Part shown: in pieces, positions 4,134-5,846 of the stretch
Numbering within the stretch: position 1 is the first letter of the stretch
How the letters are laid out: each line of letters opens with the position of its first letter
From: a virus
Taxonomy: Duplodnaviria; Heunggongvirae; Uroviricota; Caudoviricetes
IMG/VR virus record: IMGVR_UViG_2695420744_000016
Span: 1-5,846 of that record
Length of the DNA: 5,846 nt
Reading direction: 5' to 3' (one strand)
Made by a program: the position numbers and the translations under genes
Notes under the pieces: generated by a model
Told to the model about the DNA's origin: nothing
Database searches by the model: none
Seen by the model: the letters and a program-made list of their open reading frames with translations, nothing else

Positions 4134-4601
4134 ATGAACCGCGTACTGTGCGTGGTCATCATTGCTCTGCTGGTGGCCTGTGGTGCGCTTAGTCTGGGGC
4201 TGAATCATTACCGCGATAACGCCATCACTTACAAAGCGCAGCGCGATAAAAAAGCCAGAGAGCTGGAGCTGGCAAACGCAACCATTACTGATATGCAGGT
4301 GCGCCAGCGTGATGTTGCTGCGCTCGATGCAAAATACTCGAGGGAATTAGCCGATGCGAGAGCTGAAAATGAAACTCTTCGCGCTGACGTTGCCGCTGGT
4401 CGTAAGCGCCTGCGTATCAACGCCACCTGTCCAGGTCCCGTGCGTGAAGCCACCGGCACCGCCCGCGTGGATAATGCAACCGGCCCCCGACTGGCAGACA
4501 CCGCTGAACGGGATTATTTCACCCTCAGAGAGCGGCTGATGACGATGCACAAGCAACTGGAAGGGGCGCAGGAATATATCCGTACTCAGTGCCTGAAATA
4601 A
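4134..4601 (+). CDS. Rz: Rz inner-membrane spanin (i-spanin), lambda-type
   Basis: 155 aa with an N-terminal TM helix ([20 protein letters not shown]) and a periplasmic coiled-coil domain. Long near-identical stretches to lambda Rz as I recall it ([46 protein letters not shown]). Confidence 0.92.
4354..4539 (+). CDS. Rz1: Rz1 outer-membrane lipoprotein spanin (o-spanin), embedded in the +1 frame of Rz
   Basis: 61-aa ORF wholly inside Rz. Lipobox VSAC with Cys20. Pro-rich mature part whose C-terminus [32 protein letters not shown] is near-identical to lambda Rz1 as recalled. SD-like GGGA at 4342-4345. Confidence 0.88.
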
Positions 4602-4951
4602 GTTTTGTTGATGCGCCGTATCGTCGCTGTATTCCCTCATTAACAGAGACCGCAGCCCGACAGGGAGACTCCTCTGCGCGAGTGTGCGGGGATAATCAAA
4701 AACGATACACACCGGGGTTTACCGCGTTAACGGAGCGCGGCGTTGTCCCCTCATAGTCGCCTGTCCGGTGCGATGGTGGAAGAAACCGGATGTTTATCAC
4801 TATTAATTGATGACACAGAAATGGATTCATTGAATTTCAGCACGTTTTTGTATTCGTGTTATTGAACATCTGTTTATTTTACTTTTAACATATTGATAAT
4901 AAAAAGAGCTGTAAATCTTTAGATGAGTCGATTTTGTCCGGGGAAGTTCAA

Positions 4952-5092
4952 ATGGATTTTATGCTGACGGTTTCTGGTGTGGTTATCCTGTCCATTGCTT
5001 ATACTGCAGATAAATATGGCTGCCATTTGTTATCACGTATTGGCGCTTATTGTTCGTTGATGCTGATTTTCTCGTCGCTTTTTTTTGAGTAA
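4952..5092 (+). CDS. Candidate small hydrophobic protein (46 aa), hypothetical
   Basis: ATG 4952 preceded by GGGGAAG at 4940-4946. Translation MDFMLTVSGVVILSIAYTADKYGCHLLSRIGAYCSLMLIFSSLFFE. Lies in an AT-rich segment; no family recognised. May correspond positionally to the small ORF annotated a few hundred bp before the right end of lambda, which I cannot confirm. Confidence 0.2.
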   Translation: MDFMLTVSGVVILSIAYTADKYGCHLLSRIGAYCSLMLIFSSLFFE

Positions 5093-5224
5093 GTTATATT
5101 AATTATAACAAATAATTTTCTGTGTTATTTTTTCAGGCTATCCCGTCAGAGGGGAAGCCTGTACTGCCGGGGAGCGAATGGAAAACTGATGTGTCCGGTA
5201 ACTGCGTGTTCTGTGAACACCATG

Positions 5225-5410
5225 TTACTTAATTATGTAATTCATACCCGAACTCTCTGTTGACAGCCTTCTTCTGCAGGCTTCAATAACCCACGCTGAA
5301 AAGTTTCCTGAACCTTTCAGATCAAGAGCGATGTTAATTTGTTCAATCATCTGGTTTGGAAATCGGATGTTGCGGGTTGTTGTTCTGCGGGTTCTGTTCT
5401 TTGATGACAT
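5225..5410 (-). CDS. Arc/Mnt-like ribbon-helix-helix (RHH) DNA-binding protein, 61 aa, orphan
   Basis: Reverse-strand ORF. Basic N-terminal arm (MSSKNRTRRTTTRN), predicted beta-strand NIRFP, helix A QMIEQINIALDL, G-x-N-x-S turn and helix B NFSAWVIEACRRRL. Aligns by eye with P22 Arc (FNLRWPREVLDLVRKVAEENGRSVNSEIYQRV). A -10-like GATAAT sits on the reverse strand at 5444-5449. Confidence 0.6.
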   Translation of the reverse strand: MSSKNRTRRTTTRNIRFPNQMIEQINIALDLKGSGNFSAWVIEACRRRLSTESSGMNYIIK

Positions 5411-5465
5411 AATGTTTCCCCATATTCAGTGTTGCTGATTTGTATTATCTGAAGTTGCTTTTACG

Positions 5466-5512
5466 TTAATTTGATGCAGATCAATTAATACGATACCTGC
5501 GTCATAATTGAT
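5466..5512. repeat. Cluster of TAATTGAT-type inverted repeats upstream of the RHH gene
   Basis: TAATTTGAT (5467-5475), ATCAATTA (5480-5487) and its exact reverse complement TAATTGAT (5505-5512); also CGTCA (5500-5504) paired with TGACG (5517-5521). Confidence 0.35.
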
Positions 5513-5609
5513 TATTTGACGTGGTTTGATGGCGTAGATGCACGTTGTGACATGTAGATGATAATTATTATCATTTTGCGGGTCCTTTCCGGCGATCCGA
5601 CAGGTTACG

Positions 5610-5621
5610 GGGCGGCGACCT
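5610..5621 (+). other. cosN, lambda-type 12-nt cohesive-end sequence GGGCGGCGACCT
   Basis: Exact lambda cohesive-end 12-mer. Flanked upstream by GGGTCCTTTCCGGCGATCCGACAGGTTACG (lambda right end as recalled, with one T-to-C difference) and downstream by CGCGGGTTTTCGCTATTTATGAAAATTTTCCGG (lambda left end). Confidence 0.85.
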
Positions 5622-5798
5622 CGCGGGTTTTCGCTATTTATGAAAATTTTCCGGTTTAAGGCATTTCCGTTCTTCTTCGTCGTAACTTAATGTTTTTATT
5701 TAAAATACCCCCTGAAAAGAAAGGAAACGACAGGTGCTGAAAACGAGCTTTTGGGCCTCTGTCGTTTCCTTTCTCTGTTTTTGGCCGTGGAATGAACA
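5622..5798 (+). other. cosB terminase-binding region (R3, I1/IHF, R2, R1 elements) of a lambda-type cos
   Basis: Nu1-binding R-element cores present: CATTTCC at 5662-5668 (R3; lambda has CGTTTCC as I recall), GGAAACG at 5723-5729 (R2, inverted), CGTTTCC at 5763-5769 (R1). AT-rich IHF-type segment around 5683-5705. Ends at the Nu1 start. Confidence 0.7.
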
Positions 5799-5846
5799 AT
5801 GGAAGTCAACAAAAAGCAGCTGGCTGACATTTTCGGTGCGAGTATC
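5799..5846 (+). CDS. nu1: Terminase small subunit Nu1 (N-terminal 16 codons; CDS continues beyond the window)
   Basis: Translation MEVNKKQLADIFGASI is identical to the N-terminus of lambda gpNu1 as recalled, at the expected distance (about 190 bp) downstream of cosN. Confidence 0.9.
   Translation, partial: MEVNKKQLADIFGASI

Follow-up and report, generated by a model that had tools for sequence, protein, structure and literature searches.

A YlcI/YnfO (DUF3950) family gene next to cos in a lambda-like prophage probably encodes an Arc-like ribbon-helix-helix protein

The DNA analyzed here (the window, 5,846 nucleotides) carries, on the reverse strand next to cos, a 61-aa open reading frame (ORF) that an earlier note had read as an orphan Arc-like ribbon-helix-helix (RHH) repressor gene with inverted-repeat operators upstream. 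The locus raises the question of whether this ORF is a gene, what kind of protein it encodes, and whether the repeats serve its regulation. The window comprises the right end of a lambda-like prophage, linked via cos to the left end, and is 99.9% identical to the corresponding DNA of Escherichia coli 23CRST047 (NZ_AP045820.1). Its gene order runs from a SASA-type esterase gene through small lysis-region genes, a holin gene, an endolysin gene, and Rz/Rz1 to a short accessory region, followed by cosQ, cosN, and the start of a Nu1-type gene (Table 1). Both the list of ORFs and the source-genome annotation confirmed that the gene opposes the late operon and adjoins cos. The earlier note had also seen no toxin partner, and this was correct for the window, where the neighbors are a convergent 46-aa ORF on one side and the divergent cos/Nu1 region on the other. 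The 46-aa ORF (4952 to 5092, plus strand; hypothetical protein WP_000347013.1) is hydrophobic and occupies the position of lambda bor/ybcV/ybcW, and a 36-aa ORF (5122 to 5232, plus strand) overlaps the 3' end of the reverse-strand gene by 8 nt. To the left of cosQ, a plus-strand sigma-70-like site (5547 to 5574, GTGACA-16 nt-TATCAT, 10/12 matching positions) is directed into cos and Nu1 and overlaps a ATGATAAT/ATTATCAT palindrome at 5558 to 5574. An Rfam scan of window positions 4600 to 5846 returned only sub-threshold noise.

The reverse-strand ORF was present as described, from ATG to stop and with the quoted protein sequence. To characterize selection on it, we used 84 related loci, in which the first 150 nt occurred in 18 distinct forms. 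Among these 18 cores, 9, 4, and 30 sites varied at codon positions 1, 2, and 3, respectively, and the claimed frame had a pN/pS (summed Nei-Gojobori) of 0.098, compared with 0.37 for one of the reverse frames and values greater than 1.5 for the remaining four. The reading frame is thus conserved with the synonymous bias to which the earlier note had looked for confirmation. Proteins with 35 to 60% identity are encoded in Serratia, Pectobacterium, Xenorhabdus, Proteus, Tatumella, Pantoea, Salmonella arizonae, and Pasteurella, where the flanking DNA is unrelated. The ORF is a real gene under purifying selection. Comparison of 40 distinct lambda-type sequences revealed a conserved block that ends in mosaic joints on both sides (about 5276 and about 5651), and DNA homology to lambda-type phages detected by BLAST likewise starts at about 5276. 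Because the left joint falls within the 3' end of the gene, the C-terminal tails of the homologues are unrelated to each other and differ in length, giving totals of 61, 64, 66, 74, or 77 aa. For K-12, a convergent overlap of ybcW and ylcI, the K-12 homologue, has been listed in a published RNA-seq survey (PMC12288877), which counts as indirect evidence of expression.

Table 1. Positions of the YlcI-like gene, its upstream boxes, and the packaging-site features in the window, and of palindromic boxes in three satellite-type islands (positions within loci L161, L135, and L126)
Feature	Position	Strand	Basis or remark
CDS, 61 aa, YlcI/YnfO family (DUF3950)	5225..5410	-	ATG at 5410, stop at 5225-5227; WP_001329960.1
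Conserved core, residues 1-50	5261..5410	-	Family alignment, AF2 monomer, hhalign register
Variable C-terminal tail, residues 51-61	5228..5260	-	Tail variants among homologues
Shine-Dalgarno-like GGGGA, 6-10 nt 5' of ATG	5417..5421	-	Sequence; RBS marked equivalently in phage 434
Box 1, TAATTTGAT (TAATTGAT with 1-nt insertion)	5467..5475	+	Unsupported candidate binding site
Box 2, exact TAATTGAT	5480..5487	-	Unsupported candidate binding site
Box 3, exact TAATTGAT	5505..5512	+	Unsupported candidate binding site
Lambda-type conserved block (gene core, upstream DNA, cosQ, cosN)	5276..5650	none	Per-position diversity and BLAST extent
cosQ	5580..5587 (approx.)	+	Transferred from phage 434 annotation (23-29 nt from 434 right end)
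cosN cohesive-end sequence GGGCGGCGACCT	5610..5621	+	Read from sequence
Nu1-type small terminase gene	start at 5799		Source-genome annotation "DNA-packaging protein"
Spaced palindromic boxes, gap between DUF3950 gene and replication operon	L161 3894-3973; L135 3891-3971; L126 3903-3945		

The gene is not an orphan, and it is not new. Its product is a member of the already described YlcI/YnfO (DUF3950) family: it matched Pfam PF13132 (DUF3950) at 67.5 bits (cutoff, 25; E=9.2e-19), NCBIfam NF041551 (YlcI_YnfO_N) at 35.2 (cutoff, 30), and phrog_949, annotated as function unknown, with E=9.1e-32. The source genome labels it "YlcI/YnfO family protein," and the phage 434 record carries a copy annotated as a DUF3950 protein with a ribosome-binding site. 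The family motif FSAWV corresponds to F37-S38-A39-W40-V41; among the aligned family members, F37 and V41 never vary, and W40 shows at least 90% conservation. The K-12 proteins YlcI and YnfO (Qin prophage) share the family and this motif; the window protein differs from them in having 61 rather than 64 or 77 residues and a tail that diverges after about residue 50. K-12 ylcI (b4589, DLP12 prophage) has the same position and orientation as the window gene, lying between the lysis/bor/ybcV/ybcW region, with ybcW adjacent, and the small-terminase gene nohD. Unlike DLP12, the window prophage has no bor, ybcV, or ybcW between Rz and the gene.

Lambda itself encodes a copy. A 64-aa ORF at 48109 to 48303 on its minus strand (2210 to 2404 of our lambda locus L004) is 100% identical to K-12 YlcI (UniProt YLCI_ECOLI). 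The RefSeq record NC_001416 has no CDS past 47944 and leaves this ORF unannotated, while other lambda records do annotate it, so that the earlier suggestion of an unannotated gene in a lambda segment holds for the reference record and fails for these. The note had also placed the gene in the slot where lambda carries bor; since lambda holds both bor and its own YlcI copy, this placement is inaccurate.

The family is widespread in E. coli, where most lambdoid prophages carry this small accessory gene. The 150-nt core was matched in 4,184 of 5,426 complete E. coli genomes (about 77%), in which it is annotated YlcI/YnfO and can reach 12 copies in a single genome, and the identical 61-aa sequence is recorded on about 1,000 contigs. 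Our literature search brought up no work on the function of ylcI, ynfO, or DUF3950 and no experiment on a family member, and ynfO is counted among the uncharacterized y-ome genes (PMC11551758). Dozens of "homologues" with 90% identity, many of them frameshifted, were found on contigs of 3.4 to 3.56 kb or about 48.5 kb that carry the names of unrelated taxa (L087 to L121, L140, and L149; ENA proteins), including Cohnella, Flavobacterium, an Arcanobacterium "plasmid," Streptomyces, and Staphylococcus aureus. These copies look like leftover lambda control DNA in assemblies; the short contigs would be the 3.6-kb lambda right-end fragment used as a nanopore control and the 48.5-kb contigs whole lambda. 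Such copies make the taxonomic range of DUF3950 look wider than it is.

We then asked what kind of protein the family encodes. The predicted core consists of a basic arm (residues 1 to 12), a putative strand (R13-N14-I15-R16-F17-P18), helix A (about 19 to 32), a turn (G33 to S38), and helix B (about 37 to 50). The residues I15, R16, I25, F37, V41, and C45 are invariant in the family alignment, and when aligned by eye, I15 and F17 together with F37/V41/C45/L49 (i/i+4/i+8/i+12) are spaced like the hydrophobic core of an RHH protein. The "G-x-N-x-S turn" of the earlier note was inexact, the actual residues being G33-S34-G35-N36-F37-S38. Its expected Pfam match to an Arc, CopG, or MetJ family was not obtained either: against Pfam and NCBIfam, the query and 32 diverse members matched no curated RHH model, only DUF3950/YlcI_YnfO_N. 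PDB sequence and profile searches gave nothing relevant, and in a profile search of 5.8 billion proteins the best 120 matches listed were all DUF3950, with no bridge to RHH families.

A direct profile-profile comparison pointed to Arc. In a single planned hhalign comparison, a 17-sequence alignment of the family core was set against an 18-sequence Arc-family alignment and matched with P=7.8e-4, at a probability of only 25% and over 26 columns covering only the strand and helix A. The match pairs residues 8 to 33 with Arc residues 5 to 30 without gaps, placing N14/R16/F17/P18 on Arc N11/R13/W14/P15 and G33 on G30. The score of 20.2 was reached by none of 100 column-shuffled controls (9.1 ± 1.9, maximum 14.2), and the reversed alignment scored 6.8; hhalign comparisons with single Arc and CopG sequences were weak. 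Among the 32 diverse members, 10 matched PHROG 497 ("HicB-like," best 8.3e-5), 3 matched phrog_228 ("Arc-like repressor," best 6.8e-4), and two more "Arc-like repressor" PHROGs were matched by one member each. The Arc-register alignment and some Arc-like and HicB-like PHROG matches are in keeping with the RHH signature claimed from the sequence, which no curated RHH model recognized. The AF2 monomer was of low confidence (pLDDT 66.6), with a disordered N terminus, helices at 19 to 32 and 34 to 55, and no strand, a predicted shape that agrees with what would be expected of an RHH chain modeled without its partner. Foldseek returned NikR and Arc (1par) as best matches, with every fold-search score under the usual significance levels, and a BFVD fold search was uninformative. 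Each of these items is weak alone, and all of them point in the same direction. We therefore regard an Arc-like RHH fold as likely, and as the probable, best available reading of the window protein.

Outside its own family, the window protein can be compared with P22 Arc (PF03869, 1par) and with the DNA-binding RHH domains found in type II antitoxins and in regulators of the CopG family (CopA-SO 6iya, Rv0298 8u12, and HicB-like phage proteins). The window protein resembles Arc in size and in the predicted order of strand, helix, turn, and helix; its strand NIRFP aligns in the same register and without gaps with NLRWP of Arc (N-x-R-aromatic-P), and the alignment also takes in helix A and the glycine that precedes the turn. 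It differs from Arc in that identity is about 15%, PF03869 is not matched, and helix B aligns by eye only after a shift of one residue, outside the hhalign match. Further differences are the long basic N-terminal arm and the genetic context, which is the lysis cassette and cos instead of immI (ant, mnt), with candidate operators only.

Taken together, the explanation that we favor, with moderate confidence, is that the window carries a YlcI/YnfO accessory gene for an RHH DNA-binding regulator that is expressed from its own promoter outside the late program. The core of about 50 residues would fold as an RHH dimer, in which the N-terminal strands (R-N-I-R-F-P, compare F-N-L-R-W-P of Arc) would pair into a two-stranded sheet lying in the major groove. 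N14 and R16 on the paired strands would read DNA bases, phosphate contacts would come from the first residues of helix B (N-F-S), and the basic N-terminal arm would contribute non-specific DNA contacts. The protein would then be a small sequence-specific regulator, probably a repressor with its own promoter among its targets. Because the gene is oriented against the late transcript, it needs a promoter of its own, and it would probably be transcribed outside the late program, like other accessory genes between Rz and cos. For the window protein itself, we infer the fold, the DNA binding, and the repressor or other regulatory role.

The genomic contexts of distant homologues bear on this explanation. 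Many of them lie in satellite-type islands of Enterobacterales other than E. coli and of Pasteurella, which carry an integrase gene, a gene for an AlpA/HTH_17 regulator, the DUF3950 gene on the opposite strand, small genes, and a primase-helicase gene. No other gene between alpA and the primase operon of these islands lies on the opposite strand, and the DUF3950 gene diverges from the replication operon over a short intergenic region with two or three palindromic boxes. In Rahnella and Klebsiella islands, TGTGCGCACA occurs three times at spacings of 23 and 47 bp; in Symbiopectobacterium and relatives, GGTGCACATACAC occurs twice at a spacing of 23 bp; and other island lineages have other palindromes upstream of the DUF3950 gene. 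The direct repeats in the islands reached p<=0.01 in shuffles. The island homologues are thereby like the divergent small repressors of mobile elements, in which a lone opposite-strand gene faces an operon over two or three palindromes at helical-repeat spacing; they differ in that binding of the boxes by DUF3950 is only putative, and the window copy differs in having no such clear boxes. The island layout is the classic one of a small repressor with operators and supports a DNA-binding regulatory role for the family while leaving the protein that binds the boxes unnamed. Other homologues stand alone in the chromosome, for example in Tatumella, Pantoea, and Rouxiella.

Across several island DUF3950 genes, a stop-free antisense frame gives rise to ORFs of 220 to 330 aa (L167 4435 to 5109, L138 3604 to 4515, and L158 3451 to 4278, all minus strand), one of which, in Pasteurella phage Pmp7 (L167, OR544138), is annotated "transcriptional repressor." We rejected these as true genes: they have no Pfam match, look unlike proteins by eye, and include the antisense of the DUF3950 core. 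They seem to join a small conserved downstream gene to the DUF3950 antisense and are probably mis-calls.

A bolder extension is that DUF3950 proteins are RHH switch regulators of Gram-negative satellites acting through the two or three boxes, and that the lambdoid copies are paralogues that cross-talk with satellites or act close to cos. If this were true, the copies in lambdoid helper phages (YlcI of lambda and DLP12, and the window gene) could cross-talk by mixed dimers or by operator competition. A search of the literature on phage-inducible chromosomal islands (PICIs) turned up no mention of DUF3950 or of an RHH regulator, and we hold this extension to be a distinctly improbable speculation.

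We next considered the sequence upstream of the window gene, where the earlier note had seen autoregulation: an Arc-like repressor would act through three TAATTGAT boxes lying over its own promoter between 5467 and 5512. The three copies are indeed there, two exact and one with a 1-nt insertion, in an inverted arrangement, and a repeat search delimited an inverted repeat with 13-nt arms (5480 to 5492 and 5500 to 5512) of 85% complementarity; moreover, satellite members of the family do have repeated palindromes upstream. A count of the fixed word TAATTGAT gave 3 in the window against 0.21 expected, a figure that is exaggerated because the word was picked after it had been seen. When we instead shuffled the 150 nt upstream with dinucleotides preserved, the exact 8-nt inverted pair was equalled or beaten in about half of the shuffles, and a comparable trio (two exact copies and a third within one edit) arose in 123 of 1,000 (about 12%). 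The boxes do not vary among the 40 distinct lambda-type sequences, but nearly all of the block from 5276 to 5650 is equally conserved, and their invariance is therefore uninformative. In addition, a promoter scan of the minus strand upstream of the ATG revealed no sigma-70-like promoter, so that the claimed overlap of the boxes with a likely promoter fell away. Lastly, proteins that are 82 to 92% identical, with unchanged strand residues, are encoded opposite the HNH/TerS-type packaging module of other E. coli phages (Stx-type and others), where the upstream DNA is unrelated and the box trio is absent. Given the chance-level trio, the uninformative conservation, the missing promoter, and the boxless HNH/TerS-type phages, a role of the TAATTGAT boxes as autoregulatory operators of the YlcI-like gene is unsupported, and autoregulation through them is possible but unlikely. 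Just beyond box 3, the word CACGTCAA (TTGACGTG on the opposite strand) at about 5514 to 5523 on the minus strand recurs upstream of many satellite homologues, in the operator box closest to the promoter; the common word may reflect chance or a common -35-like element.

A different objection concerns the fold itself, namely, that the protein is a small helical protein that makes contacts with a host or phage protein and does not bind DNA, its RHH likeness being superficial. An AF2 monomer of two helices at moderate confidence, the failure to match curated RHH models, and fold-search scores that were weak throughout are all compatible with such a protein. Against it stand the Arc alignment, which is in the correct register, exceeds the shuffled controls, and rests on conserved DNA-reading N and R residues and the strand-ending P, as well as the members that match PHROG Arc-like and HicB-like profiles, the strongly basic N-terminal arm, and the satellite copies with their divergent-promoter and palindrome architecture. 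We consider a non-DNA-binding protein improbable and retain the RHH regulator as the preferred reading.

The position of the gene also suggests a third possibility, that the protein binds DNA near the packaging site or acts with the small terminase to modulate the use of cos, for example in protecting the prophage cos or interfering with competitors. In both types of E. coli phage, those with lambda cos/Nu1 and those in which the gene faces an HNH endonuclease gene and a Terminase_2 small terminase gene, it directly precedes the packaging module and lies on the opposite strand, although the two module types are unrelated; a single conserved block unites it with cosQ and cosN in the lambda-type phages. 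One satellite homologue (L166 4714 to 5103, P0193) is a 129-aa island protein in which a DUF3950 N terminus is joined to a segment like the N-terminal DNA-binding part of Terminase_2 TerS. However, lambda-type cosN was not found near the distant homologues, save for one match with 1 mismatch located 3.5 kb off at one locus; homologues of lambda lysis or terminase genes were not found near them; and many homologues lie in satellite regulatory regions or at ordinary chromosomal sites where no terminase gene is closer than 4 kb. Lambda cos function is not known to require the YlcI region, which also counts against a packaging role. On balance, we judge such a role to be very improbable.

A further alternative is an orphan RHH antitoxin, or a regulator derived from one, that neutralizes or represses a toxin encoded elsewhere, but the similarity is restricted to the DNA-binding domain, which is generic among RHH proteins. 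No toxin-like gene was adjacent in any context examined, including the HNH/TerS-type phages and the satellites, and the neighbors are convergent or divergent rather than co-operonic, leaving only a slim chance for this explanation. The weakest alternative, a non-functional frame that is open only through the conservation of DNA for cos, could appeal to the single conserved block formed by the ORF core and cos in lambda-type phages, but it is excluded for practical purposes by the heavy synonymous bias of the substitutions and by protein conservation in other genera amid unrelated flanks with no cos.

What the analysis adds is not a new gene: the gene belongs to a named family present in about three-quarters of complete E. 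coli genomes, K-12 included, and a phage specialist would find little surprise here unless satellites and helper phages prove to be truly linked. The lambda reference NC_001416, in turn, omits a 64-codon gene that is under purifying selection and identical to K-12 ylcI in its product. The RHH fold proposed here for DUF3950 is modestly new. It provides an uncharacterized y-ome family with a testable hypothesis, that of an Arc-like RHH binder with N14 and R16 as base readers, and the position of the satellite members behind regularly spaced palindromes suggests a regulatory switch.
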